NCBI GenBank assembly: GCA_965262915.1
Contig: OZ253564.1
Span: 4,160,001-4,224,000, forward strand
Source of the DNA: Candidatus Spongiisociaceae bacterium
GTDB taxonomy: Bacteria > Actinomycetota > Acidimicrobiia > Spongiisociales > Spongiisociaceae
Length of the DNA: 64,000 nucleotides
Reading direction: 5' to 3'
Positions 8,463-22,113 of this stretch are shown here, one piece after another. Position 1 is the first letter of the stretch, and every line of letters begins with the position of its first letter. The translations under genes and the position numbers were made by a program. The notes under the pieces are model-generated. The model saw only the letters and a program-made list of their open reading frames with translations. It ran no database searches and was not told the origin of the DNA.

Positions 8463-8575
8463 GAGGTGACGCCCGTCGTTCCCTATCTCTGAGGTGACGT
8501 CGTCCGGGTTCTGGAGGCGACGTCCTCTACTGCCCCTGAGCGAACTCCCTGGTGGGGGGTGGTCGCGAAGACCCC
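8463..8575 (+). repeat. Dispersed island repeat, copy A (three GAGGTGACG-type boxes + GGTCGCGAAGACCCC)
   Basis: Boxes at 8463, 8491, 8514; GGTCGCGAAG at 8561, 47 bp after the last box; followed by CACGAC-rich tail. Confidence 0.85.
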
Positions 8576-8682
8576 ACGGCACGGCACGACGACCGACGGC
8601 GACGCCCGGCTTTCGCCCCCGGCCCATTGAGCACTACGGCTCGGCCTGGCTGTGGACGTTCTGCAGAGGTTCGTCTACAGAC

Positions 8683-8728
8683 CCTACCCATAACGACATC
8701 AAAGTAGTTGAATGTCGTCATGGGTAGG
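8683..8728. promoter_or_regulatory. About 20-bp inverted repeat overlapping the fic start codon
   Basis: CCTACCCATAACGACATCAA-AGTAG-TTGAATGTCGTCATGGGTAGG (1 mismatch, 1 bulge). Confidence 0.6.
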
Positions 8729-9928
8729 TATGAGAAACGCCTATGGTCTCCTCACGACGCCGAACGTTATCCACCAACGAGCGGCCGCCGCAACCGCAGA
8801 TCCGGCACATACGATGCTTACATTCCAGACCTGCTCAGCGGCTGGGAACCGTCGCTACCGCTGCGCTTGGCGGGTGCGATAGCAGAAGCCGAAACGCTGG
8901 TACGCCTGACCGACGCTGTGGGGTCCGCAGACGATCCGAGCGCGGCTGAGTGGCTACTGGTGAGAGCTGAGAGCGTGGCTTCCAGCCGCATTGAAGGAGT
9001 GTTCCCGTCGCTGCGCCGCGTGGCAAGGGCCGAAGCCCGTCAAAGCGGTCTAGCACCATCCGACAAGATGGCAATCGGGAATATCACCGTCACGGCACAA
9101 GCCCTAGTGCTGGGGAAGCAGGCGCGGCCGGTGACCGTAGATGACCTATGCGGACTTCACCGATCCCTGATGAACCACTCACTCCACCCGCAGGCAGGTG
9201 GAGTAATCCGGGAACGACAGAACTGGATAGGCCCGGAGTTCTCCACTCCCCTAGAAGCCGTACACGTGCCACCGCCGCCCGAGATGGTCCGTCCGCGGCT
9301 CGAGGATCTCGTGTCCTACATGAACAACCAGCACCACCCACCCCTCGTTCAAGCTGCCCTAGCCCATTCACAGTTCATTGCGATCCACCCGTTCGCGGAC
9401 GGTAACGGCCGCACCGGACGAGCACTCATCCATCTCGTCATGCGCAGGCGGAAACTCACCCGCAACCTGACCGTACCCATAAGCTCGGTGCTGGCACGGC
9501 AACGCTCCGCCTACATCGGCACCCTCGACGCCGGACTGCACGAAGGCTCCCCTCACGACCCCGCCCGAATGACCGCACAACAACCATGGCTACAACTCCT
9601 CGCCGACGCGACCCTGGCCGCCTGCGACTACTCGGACCGCATCCAGAACAGGCTCGCCGACATTCGCGCACAATGGCAACAGGCCGTCCCACTACGCGGC
9701 GAATACCAGCGGCGCATGGTCGAACTACTACCCACCCAGCCCGTGTTCGACATCCCGACCATCTCCCAACAACTCGGAGTCAGCCAACGCACAGCCGCCC
9801 GCGTAGTGGCACACCTCCAAGAAGGCGGAATACTCCGCCAACACAACGCCGGCAAGCGAAACCGTGTCTTCGAAGCCGCAGCAATCGTCGACCTGTTCAC
9901 TTCCCTACCAGACAACATCCAAACCTGA
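8720..9928 (+). CDS. Fic family protein with C-terminal winged HTH
   Basis: ESVASSRIEG, catalytic HPFADGNGRTGR, C-terminal ISQQLGVSQRTAARVVAHLQEGGIL. Confidence 0.93.
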   Translation: MGRYEKRLWSPHDAERYPPTSGRRNRRSGTYDAYIPDLLSGWEPSLPLRLAGAIAEAETLVRLTDAVGSADDPSAAEWLLVRAESVASSRIEGVFPSLRRVARAEARQSGLAPSDKMAIGNITVTAQALVLGKQARPVTVDDLCGLHRSLMNHSLHPQAGGVIRERQNWIGPEFSTPLEAVHVPPPPEMVRPRLEDLVSYMNNQHHPPLVQAALAHSQFIAIHPFADGNGRTGRALIHLVMRRRKLTRNLTVPISSVLARQRSAYIGTLDAGLHEGSPHDPARMTAQQPWLQLLADATLAACDYSDRIQNRLADIRAQWQQAVPLRGEYQRRMVELLPTQPVFDIPTISQQLGVSQRTAARVVAHLQEGGILRQHNAGKRNRVFEAAAIVDLFTSLPDNIQT

Positions 9929-9939
9929 CCGCTTTCGAC

Positions 9940-10102
9940 GAGCAGCCCGGCACGGGCGATGTTTGTCCCAGTCTGGCGTTCAGCCATACGCTCTCCATCG
10001 TGTTGGTTCGCCAGCGTTTCTGCTGGTGGTTGGCTCATCTATCTGGGGTTCGCTGTAATACATGTAGATGGCGATGCCATAGAACGTGGACAGCCTGGGC
10101 AT
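9940..10102 (-). pseudogene. DUF4160-family toxin remnant
   Basis: Starts MPRLSTFYGIAIYMYYSE (typical DUF4160 N-terminus), then loses frame; premature TGA at 9980. Confidence 0.65.
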
Positions 10103-10103
10103 G

Positions 10104-10300
10104 TCAGTCGAGGTATCTGACCTGTGGGCATACTTCGTCTAAAGGTTTGCCGGTGACCAGCATGTAAAGCACGAGAGGACTCATGTCGTAGCGTTCGTCT
10201 TCCCAGGAGACGCCGCCGCCGTCGAGTGCATGAACCGACTCGAAGTATTCCCGGTCCGACCACAGGGCCGCCGCGAGGTTAGCTGACCACACCTGGACAG
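10104..10300 (-). pseudogene. DUF2442-family antitoxin, 5'-truncated
   Basis: SDREYFESVHALDGGGVSWEDERYDMSPLVLYMLVTGK resembles the DUF2442 C-terminal half. Confidence 0.6.
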
Positions 10301-10481
10301 GCTGATAATTACCCGCAGAGCCGGAAACAACACGACGGTTGGGCCGGTTGGGGTTGCGGGTCTTGGCGGTGGCCATAACGCGGCCCAAGTGCCGTCTGTT
10401 ACTGAAGTGCTCGCATTCTGGGGCCAGTTGCTCTCGTTTGTGGCGTTTGTTGGTCCGCCATCAATGGCCACGAGCCTGTTT

Positions 10482-11240
10482 TTATCGAACCGACGCATCG
10501 CCCCTCCTTTTGTTGGGACAGGTCTCACCGTCTCTGTTGCCCCGGCGAGAGGCATACACGAGCCGGGGCACCATAATGACGGCAACAAGAGCGAACAGAA
10601 ACAGCGATACTGCCACGACCCCCTTCCACTCTGCCGTGCGAAGGGGGATGGCCTTCACGGCGATACTACCTGCCACTATCAGAGCTGCAACCCGCGCAGC
10701 GCCGACCACTAACGCGTCACTGGGTGCAGGGATATGCTGACCTTCACGCCACGCAGTGGTGAGAAGCATCCCCGCCAAAGCCACTAAGTACACGAGGGAC
10801 CGCTCGGCGGCGACGCCTAGATCCCGGGCGACAGACATAGCGCGCGACGGTACCGCAACCAGCCAGTGTACTGCTAAGCCAGCTAGGAGGAGAAGACAAG
10901 CATTCACCGCCCAGTGCGCTAGCCGTCTGCCAGATGCTGCATCATCTCGGTCTGGTGCACGATCACCCAGCCGCTCGCCACTCGGGGGCTGAATGATTGC
11001 CTTAGCCAGTACGCCAGCGCCGAGGCCACCAAAGAAGGCAAGTCCGAACCGTAGGAGTTCCGTCTGGTCGGGCAATCCGTCCCCAACGAGGCGGAGCAAT
11101 ACCATCAACGCAGCCACTACCCCAAGCTCCACCCCCGACCGCCAGCGAGGTGGTTTAGTCGTCCACCATCTCCAAACCGTTCCGACGACTCTTCTCACGG
11201 CTAGAACGAACATGCCTAGACCGGGCAACCTTAATCTCAT
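10482..11240 (-). CDS. Hypothetical multi-pass membrane protein
   Basis: 252-aa ORF with about 6 hydrophobic segments. Confidence 0.6.
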   Translation of the reverse strand: MRLRLPGLGMFVLAVRRVVGTVWRWWTTKPPRWRSGVELGVVAALMVLLRLVGDGLPDQTELLRFGLAFFGGLGAGVLAKAIIQPPSGERLGDRAPDRDDAASGRRLAHWAVNACLLLLAGLAVHWLVAVPSRAMSVARDLGVAAERSLVYLVALAGMLLTTAWREGQHIPAPSDALVVGAARVAALIVAGSIAVKAIPLRTAEWKGVVAVSLFLFALVAVIMVPRLVYASRRGNRDGETCPNKRRGDASVR

Positions 11241-11711
11241 GGGTGAGATGTTAACCCGACCGTGCTACGGCGGCTCTTGTACCAATCTACGTGGCGAAGT
11301 GGTTGTCGAGATGCTTGACCCTGATTGCCACGGTACCATCGTAGCAGTATTCGCTGTCGACTACGGCTTCGATAGGTAGGCTGACCGCGTTGTTGCGGGC
11401 GGTCGCTGTGGTGAGGACCCGTCCGGCGTATTGGGGGCATATGAACCTCAGGACACCGTCGGGTTCACGTCCTGCTACGGACCAGCGCCATTGGGCCGCC
11501 CGCTACGTGTATCAGTCTCACAACTCGTTGCTTGCCAGTTTATGTGGTGGTGTGTGGAAATCGGTGGTGTCCGGACGGCGGAGAGGAACGTTCCGCAGTG
11601 TTCTATCTATCAGGGTTGTGGTGGACGGCGACCATTACAGCGTGGATGGCGGTGGTCACCTAGTTCAAGGGGACGACCCTAACCCCCCGGATACCGCCAG
11701 AATGGACTCCA

Positions 11712-11960
11712 CTATGCGAGCAACGGCAGAGGCGAAACATGGTGGTGATGATGGCGCGGTCCCGAGCCGAGGGGCACCGCTCGACAGCCCGTAGCAGCAT
11801 TCGATGTGACCACCACGTCATAGCGATGCTCGTCCGCTGCATCGAGCAAGGCACTATTCGCTAGTTCCTCCCAATCCAACTCCGCAGCTGTATCGACACT
11901 GTGAGGATCGAGATATCGTCGAAGCGGAGCAGGGGTGCAATTATCGAACAGTATTCTCAT
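11712..11960 (-). pseudogene. DUF5615/PIN-like (VapC45-type) toxin, 3'-truncated
   Basis: MRILFDNCTPAPLRRYL...WEELANSALLDAA...YDVVVT then unrelated sequence. Confidence 0.75.
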
Positions 11961-11987
11961 CGCATTGCCTGTTGCGCTCAAACACCC

Positions 11988-12434
11988 CTACGCGGCGGTT
12001 GCCCTGGCAGCAACTGTTTTTCGCAGATGGTCTAGAAGGACTCTTACCTGACGTATGTCCACAGCGGGGAACCACTCACAAAACTGTTCGATGGTCGCGC
12101 CACTCTCCAAATTGGCGAACAGAGCATCAACTGGGACACGCGTACCCCGGAACTCCCAAGCACCGCTGAGCCTATCGGGATGCCGCGCGACTACTTCGCA
12201 GTCCTCCCAAACGGTAGCCAACCGACCCCAAGCCTTGTTGGCTCCACGGTTCAGCAGGTCCGATAGTTCTCCTTCGGAGATACCGACCGCGCTCGCCAGA
12301 TCAGACTCCGAGTATGAGTTGATCCACCAGATGTGTAGCAAGATATCCAGCAGGCGTGACTCGACATCCAGGGCATCTGGCTCATCTCGCCACACCTCCG
12401 CCGCGCTGGCTAAGTCCGTGAGTGTGTATCCCAT
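11988..12434 (-). CDS. HTH + DUF433 antitoxin (VapB45-type)
   Basis: SESDLASAVGISEGELSDLL HTH; HPDRLSGAWEFRGTRVPVDALFANLESGATIEQFCEWFP DUF433. Confidence 0.85.
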   Translation of the reverse strand: MGYTLTDLASAAEVWRDEPDALDVESRLLDILLHIWWINSYSESDLASAVGISEGELSDLLNRGANKAWGRLATVWEDCEVVARHPDRLSGAWEFRGTRVPVDALFANLESGATIEQFCEWFPAVDIRQVRVLLDHLRKTVAARATAA

Positions 12435-12586
12435 CTCTCTATCCGCTGTGCAGGGAACTCCCATCGTACCATGAGGCCACCAAACTGCATGCCCCCCTAT
12501 GTGTTGCCAAGCCGCCCGGGGGTCCGGCTCTGGGCCTTTGGCGTTGGCAGGATGTGTAGACGGCTTGGGTTACCGAAGCCGCGAGT

Positions 12587-12604
12587 GAGGTGACGTCGTC
12601 CGGC
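12587..12604 (+). repeat. Isolated GAGGTGACGTCGTCC box of the dispersed island repeat
   Basis: Exact match to the box in copies A, C and D. Confidence 0.6.
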
Positions 12605-12611
12605 TGAGTCT

Positions 12612-12965
12612 GTGATCATCGTCCAGTTCTGCCGTGACTGGCGGACCTGGCCCGAAGATCGGGAATGGATGCTCGAAGGCGAACCCCGACCCGGCCGGCG
12701 ACCCGTACGACCTGGCGAAGGTCGCGGCTGTAGTCCGCGGGTTGTGCGAACGTTGGGACCATCCGACCCCCGCCTGGATCGAAGGCGTCCGCGCTCCGAC
12801 CGAGATTCTTCTATTCCTAGACAAAGTCCCGCTTAACCCAGAGTACGAGCGGAGCATACGTGAGGTTGCTCCGCCAGCTTGCGCGAAGCATGGCGTCTAA
12901 TTACGAGGCGGACATGTTGGAGTACAAGAAGGACGTGTTCCGACGGCTCCGCCCGAAGATACGTT
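12612..12965 (+). pseudogene. Frameshifted paralog of the 19033..19536 gene (DUF6036 partner)
   Basis: WRTWPEDREWML..P / DPYDLAKVAAVVRGLCERWD..W...APPACAKHGV aligns with WDSFPQDREIMI..P.DPEDLCRIAAVVHALCDRD..W...APPACEYHNV. Confidence 0.75.
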
Positions 12966-12967
12966 TC

Positions 12968-13148
12968 GGTGTATCCCCGTCTCTGCCATGGAACCTCTGA
13001 GGAGCAGAACCGTTGGGAACTGCTTGACGGGGGCAGGGGAATATCGTGGCCCGACCTTGACGAGGACATCGCAGTGAGAGACCTGCTCGACGGTATACCG
13101 TCGGGAGAGTCGGCAAGGTCGCTGGCTGCAGGCCCGCAAGCAGGGTAG
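12968..13148 (+). pseudogene. DUF2442-family C-terminal fragment
   Basis: YPRLCHGTSEEQNRWELLDGGRGISWPDLDEDIAVRDLLDGIPSGESARSL. Confidence 0.8.
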
Positions 13149-13262
13149 GCCCCTGACCCTGTACGACTTGGCCGCATACGAAGAGTCAGACGACTTCCGC
13201 AACAAAGCCGCTCTTCCGTAAGCCGCGTACGCGCAGGCTGCCTCGTCGTATTGGCGTGCTGC

Positions 13263-13324
13263 GCCCGTTGGTCGTCGCGGAACCGCTACTGTCGTTCCTG
13301 GTCAGGGGCGGTCTCGAAGACCCC
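13263..13324 (+). repeat. Degenerate copy E of the dispersed island repeat
   Basis: GTCGTC at 13271 and CCTGGTCAGGGGCGGTCTCGAAGACCCC keep the same register as the full copies. Confidence 0.7.
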
Positions 13325-13344
13325 ATGGGGGGTAGGCGCGGGGG

Positions 13345-13776
13345 TCAGGGACGGGCATACAGTTCGACTTTGGTGGCGTCCACCGACGCTTGGAAATACT
13401 TGTTGTCGATGAACTTGTAGGAGCCTATGTCGATCTGTTCGCGGCCTTCGGTTTCGGTGAGCCACCCGTCGAAAACGTCTCGGAGGGCGGCCCGGAGCGC
13501 ACGGTAGTTGACCGGATACGCCGACCCGGGACGGGTTGGGGGTCCGAACGGGCAGTGTTCGGAAGGTCCGTCGTAGGCCATGCCCGCTCCCGGCGCGAAC
13601 ACGACCATGAAATCCAAGTCTGATAGTCGGGGCTGATAGTCGGGGCTGACAGCCGACCCGTACAGCCACAGCCGGTCCACGTGGAACTGTTCGCACGCTG
13701 CCCGTATCTGCGGCAGCCGGTCGCGGACGAAACGGCGAAGACGCGGCGTGAACGGAACATCGACAGCGACAGCCAT
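13345..13776 (-). CDS. Minimal nucleotidyltransferase (MNT/MntA-like), no adjacent HEPN gene
   Basis: CEQFHVDRLWLYGSAVSPDY..SDLDFMV and IDNKYFQASVDATKVELY. Confidence 0.85.
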   Translation of the reverse strand: MAVAVDVPFTPRLRRFVRDRLPQIRAACEQFHVDRLWLYGSAVSPDYQPRLSDLDFMVVFAPGAGMAYDGPSEHCPFGPPTRPGSAYPVNYRALRAALRDVFDGWLTETEGREQIDIGSYKFIDNKYFQASVDATKVELYARP

Positions 13777-13912
13777 AACCCCGCCCATTCTACCGGACCG
13801 AACCGGACCGTCCCCGTGTTCGACACCACACCGGATACCGAGCTTCGAGAGGGGGGCTCTGCCCAGCAGTTGCTGTTGAGCCTGTGGCGGACGATAGCTA
13901 CTGCGGTCTGAT

Positions 13913-13996
13913 GAGGTGCCAGATTCCGGCTGAGGAGGTGACAGACTCGTGGGACCCCTACCATTACCCCTGGTCAGGGGTGGTCGCGAAGACCCC
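13913..13996 (+). repeat. Dispersed island repeat, copy B
   Basis: GAGGTG boxes at 13913 and 13935; GGTCGCGAAGACCCC at 13982 (47 bp after the last box); CACGAC tail. Confidence 0.8.
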
Positions 13997-14164
13997 ACGA
14001 CACGGCGGCCGTGACGAAATGCGCACCGCCCGTTTCGCCCGAGCAGCGCAGCAGCGTCTGGCCGGACAGTCCTTCGACCCCGACACGCTGTTCCAGCACG
14101 ACCCTGTCACGCTGCTCGATGCCTGAAATACACCGCGACGGAGCACTGGTGTTCCAACTCGTGG

Positions 14165-15385
14165 TGCACCGCCTGGGGTGGTGATCCGTTCCCGCAAGCC
14201 CCGCCCGTTGTGTGAGTCCTGTGGCGGCCCGGTGTGGTCCAAGGGTCACAGAACGGTTGTGTTGGTGGATTTACCGGCGTTCGGCGTCCGGTTCGGCTGC
14301 GGTGGCGGAAACGCCGTTGGACATGTCCGAACCCCGACTGTGAGATCAGGTCGTTCATCGAACAAGACCCCACGATTGGTCCCCAACGGGCGTTGTTGAC
14401 CTCCCGAGCGGCCCGGTGGGTGACCATCCAGGTGGGTGGGCGGGGCCGTTCGGTCGACGAGGTCGCCGCGGAGCTTGGTTGTGGGTGGCATACGGTGAAC
14501 AACGAGGTCGGCCGCTGGGGCGAAGCCCTGTTGGAAGCCGACACCGACCGGATAGGCGAGGTCCAAGCTGTGGGCATCGACAAGAAGCGTTGTTCTGGCG
14601 GAAAGGCCGGTGGCGCACCAAAGTCTGGTGCACCTCTGTCGTCGACGTGGGAGGCCACCAGCCGGTTCGACATAGTCGGTGGTAGAACGGCAGAAAGCGC
14701 CGCAGCCTGGTTCCGGGCGCAGCCCACCGAATGGTGTGAGGCTATCCGCTGGGCGGTGTCGGGTCATGTCCGGTTCGTATCGGAAGGCGTATGACAGGGT
14801 GCTGCCCCACGCCCCCGGGGTAGCGGACCCGTTCGGTGTCAGCCGCCTCGCCAACCAGCGTCTCGACGACCTACGACGAAGAGTCCAAAACGAAACCCTG
14901 GGACACAGAGGCCGCAAGGATGACCCGCTGTATCGGATACGCCGCCTCCTCACCGCCGCGCATGAGAGGATCAGCGACCGCGGTCAAACACGGCTGCGTG
15001 GCCTCCTCGATGCCGGTGACCCCCACGGGGAGGTACGCACAGCCTGGCACGCGACCGAAACGGTACGGGGCATCTACGGGATCGAAAGTCCCGCCCTTGC
15101 TCTCCGGTACACCGTCGGGCTCGCGGACGACCTCCAGGACGAATCCTGCCCACCCGAGATCAACAAGCTGGGTCGCACCATCGCCCGCTGGACCCCCCAG
15201 ATCACCAACTGGCACATCTCGAAGGTAACCAACAGACGCCACCGAAGCCCTCAACAACCTGATCAAACGGATCAAACGAGCAGCGTTCGGGTTACCCAAC
15301 TTCGCGAACTACCGAATCCGCGCCCTTCTCTACGCCGGGAAACCCAACTGGGACCTCCTCGCATCGGTCACTCCCCACTGAAATC
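14165..15385 (+). pseudogene. ISL3-family element (a): 5'-truncated, multiply frameshifted transposase; right IR split by IS110
   Basis: High similarity to 16842..18140 across several frames; IR half CCCCACTGAAATC ends at 15385, remainder GAAGAGCC at 18304-18311. Confidence 0.9.
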
Positions 15386-15401
15386 CACTCATAATTAGAA
15401 G

Positions 15402-15590
15402 GTTCCTGGGCTAGGGCGGGTCTGACCCAACTGAAATCTGGCCTTGTGCCTTTTCATCGATCTGTCGGCCCGTTCCCGGCCTGGGGCGTAACCCCCTGAC
15501 CCGGGGCGGATGTGACCTAATAGGAGCCTTCAACTTCTCCACCGTGAGTGGCCTGTCCAACCGCACACGGGTCCGGGGATCGGAAATGAT
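15402..15590 (+). ncRNA. Putative IS110 bridge RNA
   Basis: Non-coding left end with ACTGAAATC (15430, left target), TCATCGA (15454, revcomp right target), ATAGGAGC (15520, left donor), TGAGTGG (15545, revcomp right donor) in canonical order; ends approximate. Confidence 0.8.
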
Positions 15591-15616
15591 TCTATCCCCT
15601 AGAGGAGAAGAGCATC

Positions 15617-16855
15617 ATGGGAGAAGCAGACCAGATTATCTACGGTGGGGTTGACACCCATCGGGACGTCCACGTAGCAGCGGTGGTGGATGGCGTCGGG
15701 CGGGTACTGGGATCGGAGTCTTTCGCGGTGGAGGAATCCGGTTATCGGCGAATGGTCACCTGGTTCGAGTCGCGGGGACAGTTGGTTCGGGTTGGGGTGG
15801 AAGGAACGGGTAGTTACGGCGCCGGCCTGGCCCGTTACCTGACCGAGATGAACATCGAGGTGGTGGAGGTCAACCGCCCCAACCGCCAACTACGCCGCCA
15901 GAAGGGCGGCAAGACCGACAGCGTCGACGCCGAGGCGGCAGCTCGGGCAGCTGCCTCGGGCGAAGCAACCGCGGTTCCCAAGTCCGGTGTGGGCCCGGTC
16001 GAGTGCATACGGATGCTGTGGGTGGTGCGCCGCTCCGCGGTCAAGGCCCGCACCCAGGCCGCTAACCAGATACATGCGCTGGTCGTAACAGCTCCCGAGC
16101 CGCTAAAACACCAGCTAAAGGGCATGAATCTCAAAGCACGGGTCAAAACCTGTGCCCGGTTCCGACCCGGCACAGACCACACCACCACCGCGTATGCGAA
16201 GCGTGCCCTACAGCATTTGGCCCGCCGGTATCAGGCCCTCGACGTAGAGATCGCCCAACTCGAAGCCGAGATCCGGCGTCTCTGCGCCCAGGCCAACCCG
16301 GCCCTGCTGGCCACAGAAGGTGTCGGTCCTGACACAGCCGCCGCGTTGTTGGTCGCCGCCGGCGACAACCCCAAGCGAATGAAATCGGAACGGTCTTTCG
16401 CGGCGCTGTGCGGCGCCAGCCCCGTCCAGGCGTCATCAGGACGAACCCTTCGGCATCGTCTCAACCGGGGCGGCAACCGCCAAGCCAACAACGCGCTATG
16501 GCGGATCGCTACCACCCGGATGCGCACCGACGCCGCCACCAAAGCCTACGTGGCACGACGCAAGGCCGAGGGCAAGAAGAAAAAGGAGATCATCCGCTGC
16601 CTCAAGCGGCACATCGCCCGAGAAATCTACCGGCTCCTCACCAACCCGCACCCAACCCCGAACTGCGCCCGCCTACGCACCCGACGCCAACAACGCGGCA
16701 TCACCCTCACCCAGACCGCCCAAGCCGTCGGAACCCACCCCAATCGCATCTCAGCACTCGAACACGGCCGAGACCACAACCACCACCTCGCCACCCGATA
16801 CCAGAACTGGCTGCACACCCACCAAACCGGCTCATCGGATTTCAGTGGGGAGTGA
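15617..16855 (+). CDS. IS110 transposase (DEDD RuvC-like + Tnp) with C-terminal XRE HTH; last codons replaced by ISL3 insertion
   Basis: GGVDTH, GVEGTGSYG, GKTDSVDA, ASSGR.RHRLNRGGNRQAN; RBS GAGGAG; native end HQTAPSSI* at 18270-18287. Confidence 0.95.
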   Translation: MGEADQIIYGGVDTHRDVHVAAVVDGVGRVLGSESFAVEESGYRRMVTWFESRGQLVRVGVEGTGSYGAGLARYLTEMNIEVVEVNRPNRQLRRQKGGKTDSVDAEAAARAAASGEATAVPKSGVGPVECIRMLWVVRRSAVKARTQAANQIHALVVTAPEPLKHQLKGMNLKARVKTCARFRPGTDHTTTAYAKRALQHLARRYQALDVEIAQLEAEIRRLCAQANPALLATEGVGPDTAAALLVAAGDNPKRMKSERSFAALCGASPVQASSGRTLRHRLNRGGNRQANNALWRIATTRMRTDAATKAYVARRKAEGKKKKEIIRCLKRHIAREIYRLLTNPHPTPNCARLRTRRQQRGITLTQTAQAVGTHPNRISALEHGRDHNHHLATRYQNWLHTHQTGSSDFSGE

Positions 16856-18261
16856 CCGATGGGAGTAGGTCCCAGTTGGGTTTCCCCGCGTAGAGAAGGG
16901 CGCGGATTCGGTAGTTCGCGAAGTTGCGGAACCCGAACGCTGCTCGTTTGATCCGTTTGATGAGGTTGTTGAGGGCTTCGGTGGGTCCGTTGGTTACCTT
17001 CGAGATGTGCCAGTTGGTGATCTGGGGGGTCCAGCGGGCGATGGTACGACCCAGCTTGTTGATCTCGGGTGGGCAGGATTCGTGTTGGAGGTCGTCTGCG
17101 AGCTGGAGGGTGTATCGGAGAGCAAGGACCGGACTCTCGATCCCGTAGATGCCTCGTACCGTCTCTTTCGCGTGCCAGGCTGTGCGCACTTCCCCGTAGG
17201 GGTCACCAGCATCGAGGAGACCACGCAGCCGTATTTGACCCCGGTCGCTGATCCTCTCATGCGCAGCGGTTAGGAGCCGCCGTATCCGATACAGCGGGTC
17301 ATCCTTGCGGCCTCGATGCCCGAGGGTTTCGTTTTGGACTCTTCGTCGTACCTCGTCGAGACGCTGGTTGGCGAGGCGGATGACGTGGAACGGGTCCGCT
17401 ACCTGCAGCGCGTGCGGCAGCACCCTGTCATACGCCTTCCGATACGAACCGGACATGTCCAACACCGCCCAGCGGATAGCCTCACACCATTCGGTGGGTT
17501 GTGACCGGAACCAGGCTGCGGCGCTTTCTGCTGTTCTACCAGGGACTATGTCGATCAGCTGGTGGCCGCCAACGTCGACGACAGAGGTGCACCAGACTTT
17601 GGTACGCCAACGGCCCCGACGCCAGAACAACGTCTCGTCCACTCCCACAGCTTCGACGGTCCCGACCCGATCGGTGTCTGCTTCCAGCAGCGCTTCGCCC
17701 CAGCGGCCAACCTCTTTGTTCACCGTATGCCAATCACAACCAAGTTCTGCGGCGACCTCGTCGACCGAACGGCCCCGCCCACCCACCTGGATGGTCACCC
17801 ACCGGGCCGCTCGGGATGTCAACAACGCCCGTTGGGGACCAATCTTGGGGTCTTGTTCGATGAACGATCTGAGCGCACAGTCGGGGTTCGGACATGTCCA
17901 GCGCCGTTTCCGCCACCGCAGCCGCACAGGCCGGCCGAACGCCGGTAAATCCACCAACACAACCGTCCGATAGCCCTTCGACCACACCGACCCGCCACAG
18001 GACTCACACAACGGCCGGGGCTTGCGGGACCGGATCACCACCTCCAACGGTGCCTCCTCGCCCGGGTCGTTGATCCCTACCAGATCAACCTCACCTAGGC
18101 CTACCAACTTCTCGCACATGCGCGTAGGATCAGCTTCCACAGGGGTCCTCCTGCCTCGGATGTCATTACCAACACCCGATTATGGAGGACCCCTCCTCAC
18201 TTCTGGTGGATTCCAACTCCCCCTGGCAGATCCCCTACTCCCCACTCATTTCCGAAGAGCC
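16829..18261 (-). mobile_element. ISL3-family element (b), intact
   Basis: IRs GGCTCATCGGATTTCAGTGGGG / CCCCACTCATTTCCGAAGAGCC; 8-bp target duplication ACCAAACC at 16821-16828 and 18262-18269. Confidence 0.95.
16842..18140 (-). CDS. ISL3-family transposase
   Basis: Zn finger CESCG...WTCPNPDC, VGVDET, VLDMS, ADPFHV, TNGPTEALNNLIKRIKRAAFGFRNFANYRIRALL. Confidence 0.96.
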   Translation of the reverse strand: MEADPTRMCEKLVGLGEVDLVGINDPGEEAPLEVVIRSRKPRPLCESCGGSVWSKGYRTVVLVDLPAFGRPVRLRWRKRRWTCPNPDCALRSFIEQDPKIGPQRALLTSRAARWVTIQVGGRGRSVDEVAAELGCDWHTVNKEVGRWGEALLEADTDRVGTVEAVGVDETLFWRRGRWRTKVWCTSVVDVGGHQLIDIVPGRTAESAAAWFRSQPTEWCEAIRWAVLDMSGSYRKAYDRVLPHALQVADPFHVIRLANQRLDEVRRRVQNETLGHRGRKDDPLYRIRRLLTAAHERISDRGQIRLRGLLDAGDPYGEVRTAWHAKETVRGIYGIESPVLALRYTLQLADDLQHESCPPEINKLGRTIARWTPQITNWHISKVTNGPTEALNNLIKRIKRAAFGFRNFANYRIRALLYAGKPNWDLLPSVTPH

Positions 18262-18311
18262 ACCAAACCGCCCCATCATCGATTTGACAACCATAGGAGC
18301 ATCGAAGAGCC

Positions 18312-18400
18312 CCATAAGCCCCGTCCGTCGTGTGGGGCGTGTGGTGGGTTGGTGTGGTCCAAGGGTGAGCGGACGGTGGTGTTGGTGGATTTGCCGGGTA
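18312..18400 (+). pseudogene. Third ISL3 transposase fragment
   Basis: KPRPSCGACGGLVWSKGERTVVLVDLP. Confidence 0.8.
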
Positions 18401-18412
18401 CGGTGAGGACGA

Positions 18413-19036
18413 TTATGTGCGTCCATCGTATTCGTCGACGAGCCTAGTCAGGCGCTCCCGGATTCCTTTACCCGAGCGCTTGTCCGCGAGGAGGGAGTGA
18501 ATATCTCGGCAAACGCTGGACACCCAGTCTCGTTCGTGCCGGTAGGCGGCATTCGCGGAGAAGGTACTGTCACACAACGCCATCAGGTCGTCATAGTAAA
18601 CGATACCGGTGAACTCCGCGAGGTCGAGTATATCCTGGATGTCTTTACCGCGACCTGACAGCAGTTTCAATGCCAATAGTGTTTCAGGGTCCGCCGCCCG
18701 AACCAGTAGTGAACTGCCTTCGTAAACCGTACCGAACGACGTGCTAGGAAGATCGGCGTCGATTATCTGGCCAGCATCATCATTGATCCAGTTGTCGGCC
18801 ATCCCATGGCGTCGAGCAACGATACGGGATGCTTCCAGAACTTGTGGTGGGATTGGTCCCGCGACGACGTCCACATCTTGGGTGAGCCTTCCCCCAATAA
18901 TACCTCCGATCGCAGCGCCCCCAATCACATACAGAACATACATGTTCCCGGGTGGAGTTTCTGAACATAGTACTTCGTCGACTTCGGCAAGCAGGCCCAT
19001 CAATTCAGAGTGGGTGCGGTATGGAAGCACACTCAC
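18413..19036 (-). CDS. DUF6036-family nucleotidyltransferase (putative TA toxin)
   Basis: LYVIGGAAI, RLTQDVDV, NWINDDA, LLALKLLSGRGKDIQDI; GTG start overlaps upstream TGA. Confidence 0.85.
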   Translation of the reverse strand: MSVLPYRTHSELMGLLAEVDEVLCSETPPGNMYVLYVIGGAAIGGIIGGRLTQDVDVVAGPIPPQVLEASRIVARRHGMADNWINDDAGQIIDADLPSTSFGTVYEGSSLLVRAADPETLLALKLLSGRGKDIQDILDLAEFTGIVYYDDLMALCDSTFSANAAYRHERDWVSSVCRDIHSLLADKRSGKGIRERLTRLVDEYDGRT

Positions 19037-19536
19037 CGGATTATGAACTCGGTGTAGTTCTCCTTCGTTACCCGGCTGCGCACGGAGGCGATGAACTGAT
19101 AGTCGAACCACACATTATGGTATTCGCAAGCGGGGGGAGCGTTCACCAAGGTATGTTCCCAGATGAATCCCCGCATAGTACAACTCCGATCCCAGGCCAA
19201 CGCTACGGCCGATTTATGGCCCCACACCCAGTCTGTAATCTGGACCCCGTCACGATCACAAAGAGCATGAACCACGGCAGCGATCCGGCAAAGATCCTCT
19301 GGGTCTGGACCCACAGGAGCGTCTTTGATCATGATCTCCCGGTCCTGCGGAAAGGAGTCCCACTGCTTGATGAGAAGGGAGAGAGGTACGTGAGGTCTGG
19401 ATTCGCCGGGTTTCATGAGGGAAGGGAGGTCTGCCGCCCTTACCCGTCGGTAAGGCGCTGCCTTCTCATAGGATGGTGGTTGATTAACGATCCTCACGGG
19501 CACGCTCGTGACCCCCGACACGCTCTTTAGGCGCAT
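19033..19536 (-). CDS. Hypothetical protein, putative antitoxin partner of the DUF6036 NTase
   Basis: Translationally coupled to the NTase gene; decayed paralog at 12612-12965. Confidence 0.75.
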   Translation of the reverse strand: MRLKSVSGVTSVPVRIVNQPPSYEKAAPYRRVRAADLPSLMKPGESRPHVPLSLLIKQWDSFPQDREIMIKDAPVGPDPEDLCRIAAVVHALCDRDGVQITDWVWGHKSAVALAWDRSCTMRGFIWEHTLVNAPPACEYHNVWFDYQFIASVRSRVTKENYTEFIIR

Positions 19537-19814
19537 AGCACTTACCTCACCGTCTAGTCTACTAGCGGATCTGGGTTAGTTTCGGATGACGCTCGCTGCG
19601 AGTTGCCGCCCGATTCTTCCTGGCGCCGTTAACTACCGCTAACCCATCCCGTCGCCAGGGGGCGCCCCACACCCACCCGGGTACCCCCAATAAACCAACC
19701 CCGGCCGATCTCGCGTGTCGTGTGTCGTGGGTCGCTGCGTGTCTCTCAGCGATGGCCCCGCGTGCCACCGGGCTTTCAGTGACTGAGGCCTACCACGCCA
19801 GTCGCGTCTGAGCC

Positions 19815-19899
19815 GAGGTGACGTCCTGCCTAGTTCGGAGGTGACGTCGTCCCTAGACTCATATCGAAGTGCCTGCTCGGGGGTGGTCGCGAGGATCCT
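19815..19899 (+). repeat. Dispersed island repeat, copy C
   Basis: Boxes at 19815 and 19838; GGTCGCGAGGATCCT at 19885 (47 bp after the last box); first 39 bp identical to copy D. Confidence 0.9.
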
Positions 19900-19993
19900 C
19901 AGCTTCGCTACGGTCAAACGGGTAGGGCGCGGTACCAATGTTGAGCAGCGCCGCCGCGAAGTCGTTGCCGGAACCTATTAGACTGAAGGAGTC

Positions 19994-20488
19994 ATGGGCA
20001 ACAACACCATCACAGCAGCCCAGCCCGACCCGAACGTGGATTCTCAGAACGACCCGATGGTCCTGAGAATGATCGACTGGCGCGGCTGCTCCGCGGTTGA
20101 GTACGTTCCCGGACGCGTGGGAAGCCACCCCTCCTTCATCGGCCGTCGTATCTCGGTGCAGGGTTTGGTTGACTGGATCGAAGCGGGTCGTTCGTGGGAG
20201 GGTTTCGCTGAAACGTTCCGAATCGAACCGGACGCTGTGAAGGAGGCGTTCCGCTACTTGAACAACGACCCGCCTGTGGAAATCGTCGATTTAACCGACT
20301 GCCCCGCGGTGTGTATCGGCTATAGGGGCGTCCCGGTGTTCGAGGACTCGCGGTTCCCGGTTGAGTCGCTGTTCCACTACATCAAAGGCGGGAAGACGGC
20401 ACAGGAGTTCAGCGCAACCTACGGGTTCGGCTACGACCTCGTCGCAGCCGTCCTCCGCCACGCCGCCGTTGAGAGCCATTGGGCGTAG
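19994..20488 (+). CDS. Tandem DUF433 antitoxin
   Basis: Two DUF433-like units (PGRVGSHPSFIGRRISV..; RGVPVFEDSRFPVESLF..); RBS AAGGAG. Confidence 0.85.
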   Translation: MGNNTITAAQPDPNVDSQNDPMVLRMIDWRGCSAVEYVPGRVGSHPSFIGRRISVQGLVDWIEAGRSWEGFAETFRIEPDAVKEAFRYLNNDPPVEIVDLTDCPAVCIGYRGVPVFEDSRFPVESLFHYIKGGKTAQEFSATYGFGYDLVAAVLRHAAVESHWA

Positions 20489-20506
20489 CCGACGAGACTG
20501 GTTGCT

Positions 20507-20794
20507 GTGAGAATCCTGATCGACGAGGACCTGAACATACGCCTGAGACACCTCTTCCCGGACGACGACATATCCACGGTCGAGTACATGGGATGGAAGG
20601 GATTGGACAACGGGACTCTGTTAGACACCGCCGAGCAACACGGTTTTGTCCTCATCATCACTGGTGACACGAACATGAGCGATCAGCAGAACTTGCACAG
20701 GCGAACAATCGCGTGTGTTCTAACAGACAAAGCCTGGCCCGTTACCCCTGAACACGAACAGGAACTCGTAGCCAGGGTAGACAGGTTCCGGTGA
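20507..20794 (+). CDS. DUF5615/PIN-like (VapC45-type) toxin
   Basis: MRILIDEDL...GWKGLDNGTLLDTAEQHGFVLIITGDTNMSDQQNL. Confidence 0.88.
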   Translation: MRILIDEDLNIRLRHLFPDDDISTVEYMGWKGLDNGTLLDTAEQHGFVLIITGDTNMSDQQNLHRRTIACVLTDKAWPVTPEHEQELVARVDRFR

Positions 20795-20952
20795 CACGTC
20801 GAGTGCCCTCTAGATGGTACGGAAGCGCCGCAGCAGCAAGATCTCCGTCTGGGCTTCCCCCAAAACCGGGAAGGAATACTGCCGTCTCCACGCGGATGCT
20901 TCCGGAAGGCTGACATGACCGGGTCGCCCGCCGGTGCCGTGGACAGGTTCTG

Positions 20953-21168
20953 ATGGCGCCCACCACCGAAGAGAACGCGCGAGAGGTCCTCGCCCACCGC
21001 CGGGCCGCTCAGCAGGGACTGCGCCTGTCGAAGAGTCGCAGCCTCGCTGTCGGGCTGAGCGTGCTGTTCTGGCTGGCCGTACACGACCCCCTAGGCGCCT
21101 GGATAGCCGGGGCGGGCACGGTCGCTCTGCTGGCGCTCGCTACCGCCGGTCGCGAAGACCCCGCCTAA
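20953..21168 (+). CDS. Small hypothetical protein with hydrophobic C-terminal half, 3' end fused to a repeat half-site
   Basis: 71-aa ORF; last codons come from GGTCGCGAAGACCCC at 21148. Confidence 0.35.
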   Translation: MAPTTEENAREVLAHRRAAQQGLRLSKSRSLAVGLSVLFWLAVHDPLGAWIAGAGTVALLALATAGREDPA

Positions 21169-21220
21169 GACACGACGACGACGGCACGACGGGGGCACGA
21201 AACGACGGGCACGACGACGG
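21148..21220 (+). repeat. Right half (copy F) of the dispersed island repeat with CACGAC-rich tail
   Basis: GGTCGCGAAGACCCC followed by several CACGAC(G)-like units. Confidence 0.75.
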
Positions 21221-21545
21221 GGGCGGCCACGCCACGCCACCGCGCTACGCCGCCCCCCTCCCTGACTCGCCGTCTGACCCACGGCGTCCGACCGCACGCG
21301 GCTAGTTCCGCCGATCCCCCACGACCTGCAGTCTGGTTGGCCTCACCCGTGAGACACATCGTCCATTGCCCACAGCAAAACCCCGTTGCGAACCGTCGGT
21401 GATTCCACTGGGCGCACCTTGACCAGTGGCTCCTTGCTCATCTATCCCTTCAGTACTGGCAATGGCCGGTTGCTATGTAGCTAGACGCGTTCGATTGTCT
21501 AGCCTAAGGGTTCGTAGCCGGGGTTGACTCCCGGCGCTCATTGAG

Positions 21546-21582
21546 GGGGATACCGAGAGGGAACTTGGTATCCCCCCGTTTA
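21546..21582 (+). terminator. Strong hairpin, possible intrinsic terminator
   Basis: GGGGGATACCGAG-AGGGAA-CTTGGTATCCCCC followed by CGTTTA. Confidence 0.5.
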
Positions 21583-21684
21583 CTGCTTGAAGTCCTACCC
21601 GGACTCCCCCGGCTAAGTGCCTGGTCGGAGGGTGCTGCAGTGCCCGCCCCGACGGCCTCGTCCGTGGGCAGCGCCCCCCATCTC

Positions 21685-21769
21685 GAGGTGACGTCCTGCC
21701 TAGTTCGGAGGTGACGTCGTCCCGAGACCCCTACCGAAGTGCCTGGTGGGGGGTGGTCGCGAAGACCCC
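21685..21769 (+). repeat. Dispersed island repeat, copy D, near the island/core boundary
   Basis: Boxes at 21685 and 21708; GGTCGCGAAGACCCC at 21755 (47 bp after the last box). Confidence 0.9.
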
Positions 21770-22113
21770 GCTCCGGGGTGTTAGCCGTTCGAGGGTACCT
21801 GTCCGCCCGTTGGGGATCGGGTCTTGTGGGTGGGGTAGCGTAACTGCTCACAGCCGGCTCGGGTCGCCTTTCTATCAGAACCGACTCGTCAGCGGTACGG
21901 TGGCATCAGGTAGGAGGGGAGGCTGCAGGATCAAGCTGGGCAACCCGGTGAGCAGCCCATAACGCAGGGACTCTCACACAGCCGAAGGTATCCGCCGACA
22001 CATCGTCGTAAGCCCCGGCCTCAACGTCTTCCCGCTGTCTCTGCAGGCGAACCTCGTGCTCCGCTACCGAAGACCCGGGTCAGCGATGGTGGCGAACATG
22101 CCGCGTGCGCCTC

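Follow-up and report, generated by a model that had tools for sequence, protein, structure and literature searches.

An ~85-bp repeat as the probable right end of a DDE transposon family that appears to stack head-to-tail behind tRNA genes

A co-oriented repeat of ~85 bp that punctuates a toxin-antitoxin island is probably the right end of a family of DDE transposons. Sequence comparisons suggest that this family, which appears to be previously uncatalogued, inserts precisely behind tRNA genes and stacks head-to-tail. The evidence comes from a 64-kb stretch of DNA (hereafter, the window), the 5.05-Mb genome to which it belongs, and related genomes.

Repeat copies in the window and the genome

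A search of the window for the core GGTCGCGAAGACCCC, with up to two mismatches allowed, gave five matches, all on the + strand (8561, 13310, 13982, 21148, and 21755), a number reached in 0 of 100 shuffled windows (mean, 0.55). Repeat-finding detected families of 44–85 nt at 8490/8513, 13262/13283, 13934/13955, 19814/19837, and 21684/21707, and also at 21606 and 22061. These searches confirmed the four full and several partial copies, all on the + strand, reported in a preliminary description of this DNA; the half copies (12586–12615 and the core-only copy at 21148) also matched that description. In all four full copies, exactly 47 nt separate the start of the last GAGG(T/C)GAC box from GGTCGCG, and the preceding box starts 69–70 nt before GGTCGCG, so the fixed spacing and the box-to-box interval of 22–23 nt were reproduced by measurement. 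On the minus strand, GAGGTGAC occurs in the window only at 25437, 29015, and 32440, each time without the remaining repeat. The features of the window, named according to the reading of the repeat as a probable right end, are as follows:

8463–8575, + strand: right-end copy A, with three boxes (8463, 8491, and 8514) and the terminal inverted repeat CGCGAAGACCCC at 8564–8575, then the 5-mer ACGGC; nhmmer E = 1.3e-17
12586–12615, + strand: box-only right-end fragment (half copy); repeat-family match
13273–13324, + strand: degenerate right end lacking boxes, with terminal GGTCTCGAAGACCCC at 13310–13324; nhmmer E = 2.6e-6
13912–13996, + strand: right-end copy of the GACAGA box type, terminal repeat at 13985–13996, then ACGAC; nhmmer E = 1.8e-21
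19815–19899, + strand: right-end copy of the GACGTC box type, mutated terminus GGTCGCGAGGATCCT; nhmmer E = 2.4e-13
21148–21162, + strand: copy F, the terminal 15 nt of a right end alone, inside the 3′ end of ORF 20953–21168
21560–21650, + strand: decayed right end of the CTTGAAGTCC box type, weak (21606–21649 at 64%; nhmmer E = 0.87)
21685–21769, + strand: right-end copy of the GACGTC box type that forms the outermost canonical end of the tRNA-Arg-adjoining block; nhmmer E = 2.6e-19
21770–21774, + strand: 5-bp target duplication GCTCC, found again between tRNA-Arg(cct) and the left end at genome position 4155525 (window coordinate ~−4475)
21775–22102, + strand: decayed mini-unit of subfamily 2 (repeat family 22061–22104; nhmmer E = 0.11), with native DNA beginning just beyond

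The CTTGAAGTCC box type of the decayed copy has an intact counterpart at genome position 1601384. The decayed mini-unit has a left-end-like GGGGTGTTAGCCGTTCGAGGG from 21775 (matched by eye at ~15 of 21 positions) and a right-end-like GTGGCGAACATGCC at 22089–22102. Left ends were looked for within the window and none was found; the window copies are therefore orphan right ends, and the full extent of their units cannot be defined. Within the 26-kb block flanked by GCTCC lie four internal right ends with unrelated 5-mers. Copy F, which had been suggested to mark a crossover point, proved to be a 15-nt terminal remnant with no demonstrable crossover.

The repeat had been seen only in the island. 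This held inside the window, where all copies lie between 8463 and ~22104, but not in the genome, where nhmmer detected 19 copies (E < 1e-5; 16 on the + strand and 3 on the − strand; five of the copies in the window) in seven regions. The orientation of these matches was uniform inside each cluster. The repeat also occurs in related Acidimicrobiia metagenome-assembled genomes.

Element ends and organization of the units

The final 12 nt of the repeat (CGCGAAGACCCC) and the initial 12 nt of the left end (GGGGTCTTCGCG) are reverse complements of each other and thus form terminal inverted repeats. GGGGTCTTCGCG opens a GT-rich left end, which directly follows either a tRNA gene or another right end. 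The left end of a complete unit consists of GGGGTCTTCGCG, a second copy of TTCGCGnGTTA 23 bp inward, and then the GT-rich arm, and the right end consists of two or three boxes 22–23 bp apart, the fixed 47-bp interval, CCTGGTCAGGGGTGGT, and the terminal CGCGAAGACCCC. The subterminal regions, ~400 bp at the left end and ~130 bp at the right, are long and asymmetric. In a second subfamily, the ends are 14 bp long and co-vary (GGGATGTTCGCCAC and GTGGCGAACATCCC); they are paired in both units bearing both ends. In autonomous units, two genes adjoin the left end and read toward it, encoding a 596-aa DDE transposase and a 317-aa protein with a tyrosine-recombinase fold. Non-autonomous units are 1.0–1.5 kb long and have both ends, a remnant of the transposase 3′ end, and only toxin-antitoxin genes. 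A correspondence between box type and protein variant is based on five units.

Insertion sites and target duplications

The elements insert at a specific site and in a specific orientation, the left end adjoining the tRNA gene. The 5-mer starts right after the acceptor strand of tRNA-Met, tRNA-Arg, tRNA-Glu, and a tRNA-like 3′ fragment in this genome, of tRNA-Val in the related genome G006, and of tRNA-Met in G021, and the first base of the 5-bp target duplication is the tRNA discriminator base. In this genome, the outside 5-mers were identical in all five elements or arrays with both canonical outer ends (ACCAA, ACTTA, ACTAC, ACAGC, and GCTCC), and three other genomes supply further cases. 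Single elements away from tRNA genes have exactly one left end and one repeat, with the same 5-mer on both sides. G006 contains an element flanked by AAGGT on both sides and a tRNA-Val array in which three junctions show ACGGT. Because GCTCC here and AAGGT in G006 depart on both sides from the usual AC, the duplication is 5 bp rather than 3 bp. In the tRNA-Glu array, ACGGC adjoins the tRNA and recurs at two later junctions, and the last right end has ACAGC, not ACGGC; G021 has an ACACT/ACACT duplication, yet its outermost right end is followed by ATATA, not ACACT; and in one left-end/right-end pair of G006 (GTAAC versus AACTA), only AAC is common.

Comparison with related genomes showed filled and empty sites at tRNA-Met, tRNA-Arg, and tRNA-Val. 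In G041, whose flanks are 99.6–99.9% identical, tRNA-Met is followed by ACAGC and unit 3; at that point, this genome contains an insertion of 15.1 kb (units 1 and 2) with ACAGC on both sides. G004 has neither the repeat nor the two genes, and its tRNA-Arg(cct) lies ~40 bp from the homologue of the window gene 22114–22848. In G005, a right end and ACGGT are followed by the orthologue of the DNA next to an unoccupied tRNA-Val in this genome. The terminal inverted repeats, 5-bp duplications, filled and empty sites, and tandem build-up behind tRNA genes favor one proposal of the preliminary description, namely, that the repeat is the end of a small element that accreted repeatedly.

Transposase and partner protein

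The enzyme had been expected to be encoded elsewhere. It does lie outside the window but nearby: a seemingly intact DDE transposase gene and its partner gene follow tRNA-Arg(cct) directly, 1.5–4.3 kb ahead of the first window position. Residues Asp213, Asp336, and Glu511 of the transposase are invariant in 17 homologues, within the signature Y504-x2-R507-x3-E511-x6-K (K518), and in the structural model, Asp213 follows strand 1, Asp336 follows strand 4, and Glu511 lies in a helix. The top fold match was Tn5 transposase (E = 7e-3, probability 0.97), and Pfam DDE_Tnp_1_6 scored 23.4 bits, below the cut-off of 25.1. The transposase had no match in an NCBIfam search that named the IS30 transposase. 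The model of the partner (pLDDT 91) matched the folds of XerA, Cre, XerH, Tn1549 integrase, and IntI (E = 2e-6 to 1e-3), and neither a C-terminal Tyr nor the first Arg was conserved among its 48 homologues. These models suggest that autonomous units encode a Tn5/IS4-like DDE transposase together with a predicted tyrosine-recombinase-fold protein that lacks a conserved nucleophile tyrosine.

Among 41 related genomes searched, the core pattern was found in nine, the transposase or pieces of it in eight, and both in six; intact transposase copies were found in this genome alone among the 41 searched. The gene pair also occurs at four loci in distant Acidimicrobiia; the contig ended at one of these, and at the other three, the transposase gene invariably reads toward a tRNA 3′ end ~230–350 bp away.

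Cargo genes and later insertions

Cargo genes of mixed orientation, a transposase gene fragment, and later insertions from outside the family lie in the island:

2–2284, + strand: MmeI-type restriction-modification enzyme (cargo); the ORF begins upstream of the window
6845–8242, − strand: IS30-family transposase gene (later insertion)
8708–9928, + strand: Fic/DOC family protein (cargo)
11275–11547, − strand: broken piece of the transposase gene (aa 401–498, 40% identity, four in-frame stops)
11988–12464, − strand: DUF433 protein, antitoxin-type (cargo)
12634–13148, + strand: two small overlapping ORFs (cargo), the second of which (12879–13148) matches DUF2442
13345–13777, − strand: weak nucleotidyltransferase NTP_transf_2 match (cargo), with E = 2.3e-4 on the longer ORF 13345–13998 and none at E ≤ 1e-3 on the shorter ORF
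14166–18053: two inverted ISL3-family copies around an IS110-family transposase gene (15617–16855), later insertions
19994–20794, + strand: DUF433 (19994–20488) and DUF5615 (20507–20794) pair (cargo)

Alternative explanations

The repeat and GT-rich arm might instead form an attP-type site of integrative elements mobilized by a tyrosine recombinase, with the boxes as arm-type sites, CGCGAAGACCCC-5 nt-GGGGTCTTCGCG as the core, and arrays arising by tandem integration at tRNA genes. The islands are indeed situated at tRNA genes, the autonomous units encode a protein with the appropriate fold, the junction resembles two inverted binding sites flanking a short spacer, tandem integration predicts a tRNA gene, then successive left arm...right arm pairs, then the flank, as observed, and a shared overlap region would equally give identical outer 5-mers. 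We nevertheless regard this explanation as unlikely: the fold protein lacks the conserved catalytic residues noted above, the genome has 31 Phage_integrase matches, none of which falls in the tRNA-Arg (this island), tRNA-Met, or tRNA-Glu arrays, and resolvases have no match genome-wide. The end-proximal gene is always the seemingly intact DDE transposase with invariant catalytic residues, and the far end duplicates only 5 bp, not the 3′ part of the tRNA. Furthermore, left parts that are 97% identical follow GCTCC in this genome and ACAGC in G041, and homology-dependent strand exchange would forbid such different 5-mers. It is very unlikely that the repeat is an independent resident element (a tRNA-like decoy or REP-type sequence) that the transposon merely targets as it does tRNA 3′ ends. 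Left ends adjoin either tRNA 3′ ends or the repeat, at a 5-nt distance in both cases, and the small terminal hairpin of the repeat, followed by AC, loosely resembles an acceptor end; however, the repeat is missing from the empty sites in G004 (tRNA-Arg) and this genome (tRNA-Val) and therefore arrives with the inserted DNA, its terminal 12–14 nt co-vary with the left end in two subfamilies, and the single non-tRNA elements each have one left end, one repeat, and the same 5-mer on both flanks.

The preliminary description had also proposed integron-like capture, in which the repeat would be an attC-type site acting as folded single-stranded DNA with an integrase encoded elsewhere. Short units of toxin-antitoxin genes are separated by co-oriented repeats, and the unit content of arrays differs among near-identical genomes, as this proposal would predict. 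The arrays, however, contain no IntI-type gene, cargo genes lie on both strands, the units have a second, different end and 5-bp duplications, and sequence rather than structure is conserved. RNAalifold of 41 copies predicted no structure other than the GGGGT/ACCCC hairpin, whose five pairs are nearly invariant with no compensatory change; the terminal hairpin described earlier is thus predicted but gains no support from covariation. The integron-like reading is largely refuted, and its probability is now slight. Least probable of all, and hardly credible, is a structured RNA (leader, sRNA, or riboswitch) tied to toxin-antitoxin operons. The copies are co-oriented, GGAGG-GTG occurs inside the boxes, and three hairpins with a common GGGGT/ACCCC can be drawn by eye at left-end junctions, but no Rfam family reached the gathering score in the window and six further loci, none of the five pairs covaried, the GGAGG motif is missing from other box subfamilies, and flanking genes occur on either strand and either side.

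Comparison with known systems

Read as a transposon end, the repeat places the family closest to known systems of several kinds. Like Tn7 and Tn7-like elements, it probably uses a DDE enzyme to enter, in a single orientation, an attachment site where a conserved gene ends at its 3′ side, and it shows asymmetric ends with several (here, predicted) phased binding sites and tandem accumulation into genomic islands with abundant defence cargo. Tn7 likewise has a 5-bp duplication and a repeat spacing of ~22 bp. The conserved core of the units here, in contrast, comprises just two genes, the transposase bears a YREK signature and resembles Tn5/IS4 rather than TnsB, and the ORFs of the 3-kb core showed no TnsA, TnsC, or TniQ. 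The target selector of Tn6022 is described as TnsF, a catalytically inactive protein derived from a tyrosine recombinase (PMC10293859). Compared with that description, the 317-aa partner lacks the zinc-finger N-terminus reported for TnsF.

The Y-x2-R-x3-E-x6-K signature, weak DDE_Tnp_1_6 match, short terminal inverted repeats, and short target duplication are shared with IS4, IS5, and IS1182-type elements, but the transposase lacks an NCBIfam match and falls under the Pfam cut-off, and the family differs in its second, obligatory-looking gene, long asymmetric subterminal regions, kilobases of cargo, and tRNA-gene targeting. Chromosomal integron arrays also consist of short, variable, toxin-antitoxin-rich units bounded by co-oriented repeats, with fast unit turnover between near-identical genomes; here, however, IntI, attI, and attC-type structures are missing, gene orientation is mixed, and boundaries are pairs of transposon ends with 5-bp duplications. 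The non-autonomous units resemble MITEs in retaining both ends and a transposase remnant without a transposase, but carry functional-looking toxin-antitoxin modules and occur in ordered tandem arrays rather than dispersed.

Proposed mechanism

Serial insertion at one tRNA gene would displace older units outward, producing arrays of the form tRNA, 5-mer, unit, 5-mer, unit, in which a co-oriented right-end repeat would mark every unit boundary. The boxes are predicted to be phased binding sites of the transposase or its partner and may give rise to an asymmetric transpososome; the apparently dead recombinase-fold protein is a putative end binder or target selector, and non-autonomous units are presumably mobilized in trans. 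Adjacent units may also be able to move jointly as composites, although the internal-junction 5-mers ACGCA and ACAGA match no tRNA flank of this genome. Left ends would then be worn away by homologous recombination and decay, including in the window. Such head-to-tail stacking would build arrays of toxin-antitoxin and defence genes in this sponge-associated actinobacterium.

Distribution and architecture of the repeat

The approximately 85-bp repeat is real and functional-looking. Repeat finding placed copies in the window at about 8490, 13262, 13912, 19814, and 21684, with weaker ones at 21606 and 22061, and five matches to the core GGTCGCGAAGACCCC were counted when as many as 2 mismatches were allowed, always on the + strand, against a mean of 0.55 in shuffled sequence. 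Each of the four full copies has its last GAGG(T/C)GAC box starting exactly 47 nt ahead of GGTCGCG and its penultimate box 69–70 nt ahead of that motif; because both positions hold in 4/4, the preliminary description of four full copies with an invariant 47-nt interval was accurate. The boxes may represent phased binding sites.

The same description had seen the repeat only in the island of the window; in the genome, it is not restricted to that island. The genome is a single contig of 5.05 Mb (64% G+C; window at 4160001–4224000), and a profile built from 15 copies gave 19 matches in it at E<1e−5, of which 5 lay inside the window, in a total of seven regions. What survived the scan was co-orientation, since the copies point the same way within each region. 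Among the related genomes, 9 of 41 contained the 20-nt core with at most 1 mismatch, and these belonged to a single family, in which they spanned two genera. Exact matching against public genomes returned 29 stretches, nearly all from Acidimicrobiia or 'Candidatus Spongiisociaceae' MAGs, and profile-detectable copies were present in 28 of them. The sequencing runs in which it occurs are all represented by Logan contigs, which are interrupted at the repeats and connect right ends with the ends of IS elements.

Terminal inverted repeats and target-site duplications

Judged from sequence, the repeat forms the right end of the units in a DDE transposon family that is uncatalogued, has two genes, and targets tRNA genes; its autonomous units and toxin–antitoxin (TA)-bearing derivatives accrete in tandem. 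We regard as established the co-varying inverted ends, the 5-bp duplications, the empty and filled sites, the fixed tRNA position and orientation, and the internal DDE gene. The 3′ border of the right end is sharp at ...CGCGAAGACCCC, and immediately beyond it the sequences of 62 copies, taken from this genome and others, part ways. In about half of these copies, a left end, consisting of GGGGTCTTCGCGTGTTATGGGCTGTTGAGTTCGCGGGTTAGG and then a GT-rich arm, starts 5 nt past the right end. The first 12 nt of the left end are the inverted complement of the last 12 of the repeat, so that both ends of one unit share 12-bp terminal inverted repeats (GGGGTCTTCGCG / CGCGAAGACCCC). The units of subfamily 2, with boxes differing from the main type, have a 14-bp end pair (GGGATGTTCGCCAC / GTGGCGAACATCCC); these ends match each other in both of the two units possessing both, which stand behind tRNA-Glu, and the decayed last copy in the window (22089–22102) belongs to this subfamily. 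Box type followed protein variant in the small sample of five scorable units, with GACGTC boxes accompanying tRNA-Arg-type proteins (2 units) and GACAGA boxes accompanying tRNA-Met-type proteins (3 units).

A left end with no preceding repeat occurs directly behind tRNA-Met (1661506–1661580), and another left end lies directly behind tRNA-Arg(cct) (4155448–4155521), 4.5 kb ahead of the window. A tRNA-like 3′ fragment likewise precedes a left end, and at two further places a left end has no tRNA ahead of it. None was found inside the window, where the left ends of the units would have been lost through homologous recombination and decay. Several right ends that have no canonical left end after them are followed by CA/CG-rich low-complexity tracts:

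Window 8581–8615, CACGACG-like tract
Window 14002–14030, CACGACG-like tract
Window 21168–21265, CACGACG-like tract
Genome 1689807–1689910, CACGACG-like tract

Other sequences were observed next to right ends. At genome 1687088–1687170 (15088–15170 of locus L001), a right end is fused to the next left end as CCTGGTCAGGGGTCTTCGCG, and roughly 26 bp between two GGGGT repeats, intact in the related genome G041, are absent. The GCCGCCGTGCCGTGC motif follows ACAGC in two places, at the end of the tRNA-Met array and behind the right end at genome 1604017. Another conserved sequence, GGGTCCTAAAAACGAATCTTACGGGGTTAGGTGGTCGGCAAACCGCC, follows some right ends after a 5-mer (L019, L007, and L015; loci of the related genomes G006 and G005) and may be the end of another element using the same target position. 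A lone right end at genome 766842 has no left end within 40 kb, and a Phage_integrase gene (765573–766052, locus L005) lies about 0.8 kb upstream of it.

The 5-mers outside the element were identical on both sides in 5/5 elements or arrays of this genome with both canonical outer ends:

476302..479046, element, ACCAA on both sides
692299..686346, element, ACTTA on both sides
3643792..3624643, element, ACTAC on both sides
tRNA-Met array, ACAGC on both sides
tRNA-Arg block ending at window 21769, GCTCC on both sides

Target-site duplication around the element was the rule, with exceptions in G006, in G021 (a further related genome), and in the tRNA-Glu array. In the tRNA-Glu array, ACGGC borders the tRNA and recurs at two later junctions, and the final 5-mer is ACAGC instead. 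One of the two single elements of G006 was concordant (AAGGT/AAGGT) and the other discordant (GTAAC vs AACTA), and its tRNA-Val array has ACGGT at three junctions. The tRNA-proximal unit of G021 is flanked by ACACT/ACACT, with ATATA behind the outermost right end. For six tRNA or tRNA-like targets, the 5-mer begins at the discriminator base. A 3-bp duplication, with a 3-nt spacer after a constant AC, was ruled out by the GCTCC and AAGGT cases; because these depart from AC, the AC positions belong to the duplication, which is 5 bp long. The internal junction 5-mers ACGGC, ACGGT, and ACGAA equal the flanks of tRNA-Glu, tRNA-Val, and two tRNA-Met genes of this genome, respectively, and no match among its tRNA flanks was found for ACGCA, ACAGA, and TCAGA.

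Occupied and empty sites in related genomes

Comparison between relatives revealed empty and occupied sites at tRNA-Met, tRNA-Arg, and tRNA-Val. At the tRNA-Met array, the flanks of G041 are 99.6–99.9% identical to those of this genome, and the third unit of the array here stands directly behind tRNA-Met in G041; the two extra units of this genome amount to 15.1 kb and are flanked by ACAGC. Further along the same array, G041 carries 19.2 kb of units in place of 3.2 kb here, and the breakpoints between the two genomes lie exactly at the right-end boundary. In the related genome G004, neither the repeat nor either gene was found, and only ~40 bp separate tRNA-Arg(cct) from the gene homologous to that at window 22114–22848. 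Because the two nearly adjoin in G004, the island in this genome measures ~26.6 kb, with its start at 4155522 and its end near window 22104. The tRNA-Val site is unoccupied here; G005 has a right end and ACGGT followed by the orthologous flank, and G006 is also occupied at this gene. The left end was tRNA-proximal at tRNA-Met, tRNA-Arg, and tRNA-Glu of this genome, tRNA-Val of G006, and tRNA-Met of G021, and the gene pair was oriented alike at tRNA-Gly, tRNA-Met, and tRNA-Ser of distant genomes. Arrays would grow through repeated insertion at the tRNA, and blocks with a different internal 5-mer probably moved as composites.

Doublets of units, with their own internal 5-mer (ACGCA, ACAGA, ACGGC, or TCAGA) inside the 5-mer of the tRNA, were frequent, and 3/4 consisted of an autonomous unit and then a small TA unit. 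They occur in the following arrays:

Genome 1661584–1689801, array with doublets
Genome 1596053–1598255, array with doublets
G041 3084124–3113456, array with doublets

The transposase and its recombinase-fold partner

The genes for a 596-aa and a 317-aa protein adjoin the left end of autonomous units and read towards it. In the 596-aa protein, D213, D336, and E511 are invariant among 17 sequences, with a YREK-type context (Y-x2-R-x3-E-x6-K; K518). In a structure model, the positions of the catalytic residues fit an RNase-H-fold transposase, and the best fold match is the Tn5 transposase. The element encodes its cognate DDE-triad transposase, of which this genome has three stop-free gene copies. 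By sequence, the protein scored 23.4 bits against Pfam DDE_Tnp_1_6, below the 25.1 cut-off; it had no NCBIfam match at E≤0.01 and did not reach the curated model of a catalogued IS family (IS4, IS5, IS1182, IS1634, IS701, ISH3, and others). Its only match among plasmids was a protein annotated as hypothetical (24% identity), and the partner had none there. PHROGs and NCBIfam gave no match for either protein, and PDB sequences gave none for the transposase and only three insignificant ones for the partner (E 0.33–1.1). The protein atlas gave 'hypothetical protein' clusters of Actinomycetota; among neighboring clusters, to be taken as leads only, one has Phage_integrase on 34% of its members and one has DDE_Tnp_1 on 10%.

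The 317-aa partner has 649 homologues and no Pfam family, and its model (pLDDT 91) matches XerA, Cre, XerH, the Tn1549 integrase, and IntI. Across 48 homologues, neither a nucleophile Tyr close to the C-terminus nor the first Arg is conserved, and the partner does not have the full R-K-H-R-H/W-Y set of a catalytically competent tyrosine recombinase. This dead recombinase-fold protein may be an end binder or a target selector, for which TnsF of Tn6022 offers a precedent. Prediction of a complex of the two proteins scored 0.03, which has no bearing either way. When gene context was compared at 10 loci from 9 distant Acidimicrobiia genomes, drawn from the 649 partner homologues, the transposase family was directly downstream of the 317-aa family in 4/10. 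The pair faced a tRNA 3′ end (Gly, Met, or Ser) 230–350 bp away in 3/3 of these loci, the contig having ended at the fourth. Distant relatives of the gene pair at L071 and L072 (genome G195) and L074 (genome G191) have different left-end sequences with the same design; in both G195 loci, a pair of direct repeats of the GTGTGCAC type is located no more than about 50 bp from where the tRNA ends (3′).

Cargo and later insertions

TA-type and defense genes lie between the copies in the window (Fic/DOC, DUF433, DUF433+DUF5615, DUF2442, and a weak nucleotidyltransferase), and the largest other cluster has DUF4160, AbiEii, and DUF433 in this position. Small units retain both ends and 60–105 codons of the transposase 3′ end, and are therefore deletion derivatives carrying TA genes. 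An MmeI-type restriction–modification enzyme and an RNase_T exonuclease–BRCT protein are present as cargo at window 2–3450, on the stretch that separates the transposase pair from the first right end. The IS30, ISL3, and IS110 elements in the island are later insertions. At window 14166–18053, two inverted ISL3-family copies (arms about 90% complementary) surround an IS110-family transposase gene, the product of which has a C-terminal HTH; these IS elements have many copies in the genome. A tRNA 3′-half-like fragment (T-arm CCGGG-GTTGACT-CCCGG plus CGCTCA) was observed inside the island at window 21495–21545, just ahead of a decayed CTTGAAGTCC-type right end; a unit of G041, a close relative, contains this segment with 91.6% conservation.

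Alternative explanations

Sites of the att type, belonging to an integrative element with a tyrosine recombinase, would account for the way in which the units are laid out and for the identity of the 5-mers at their flanks. They would leave the missing nucleophile tyrosine of the partner unaccounted for, the arrays contain no integrases, and the same unit stands behind different 5-mers, which makes this explanation very improbable. Phage_integrase (PF00589) has 31 matches in the genome, none of which falls within 4155522–4182104, 1661584–1689801, or 1596050–1604020. An integrase acting in trans was also considered and rejected, genome scans for Phage_integrase and Resolvase having found none in the arrays. 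The possibility that the repeat is a target decoy rather than the transposon's own end fails because the empty sites lack it.

The preliminary description had offered integron-like capture of cassettes while not recognizing the repeat as attC. The repeat is conserved in sequence, and for 41 copies RNAalifold predicted a single hairpin of 5 bp, nearly invariant and with 0 covarying pairs. Integron-type capture itself fails, because there is no IntI-type recombinase at the arrays, no attC-like structure is present, and the cargo genes are in mixed orientation. A structured RNA is likewise rejected on the lack of covariation and of an Rfam match; at the gathering score, the window and six loci (L001–L006) yielded tRNAs only. 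Coding of a conserved small peptide, with the boxes as SD+GTG, was dismissed because other box subfamilies do not have the motif. The other suggestion of the preliminary description, the end of a small element that accreted repeatedly, is borne out by the inverted repeats, the 5-bp duplications, and the filled and empty sites.

Relation to known systems and biological meaning

A transposon end is a known kind of object. The apparently new part is the combination of three features, which we could not find described: a Tn5-like transposase whose partner is an inactive protein of tyrosine-recombinase fold, insertion at the discriminator base, and integron-like cargo arrays. The literature searched, at the level of abstracts, contained no description of the element, and family models were likewise missing. 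Like Tn7-like elements, the family inserts in a specific orientation next to a conserved gene, on its 3′ side. It differs in that its conserved 3-kb core holds two ORFs only (TnsC and TniQ/TnsD being judged from ORF content) and in that its transposase resembles that of Tn5, not TnsB. [quoted passage not shown]

We consider it possible, with the balance leaning slightly against, that the two-gene module represents an unrecognised class of site-specific transposons, in which a transposase of the Tn5/IS4 superfamily recruited a dead tyrosine recombinase as a tRNA-directing DNA-binding partner. Through this partner, insertion would always be targeted to the discriminator base of the tRNA gene. 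The arrangement would have converged on that of TnsD and TnsF in Tn7-like elements, from different components. Homing again and again, with read-through to the right end of a neighbor, would turn tRNA loci into rapidly reshuffled, integron-like TA and defense libraries with no integrase.

Tyrosine integrases are the agents to which genomic islands at tRNA genes are usually attributed. In the present case, a DDE transposon that has only two genes and targets tRNA genes with base precision appears to have built the island. In annotation, the repeat offers a practical marker for delimiting islands and units, and a compact two-protein system with a fixed position and one orientation is a candidate tool for targeted DNA insertion. 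If confirmed, the partner would be an independent second example, following TnsF of Tn6022, of a tyrosine recombinase that has lost its activity and works for a DDE transposase, and the family would provide a transposition-based route to integron-looking cassette arrays and would explain the clustering of TA and defense genes behind tRNA genes in these sponge-associated Acidimicrobiia.
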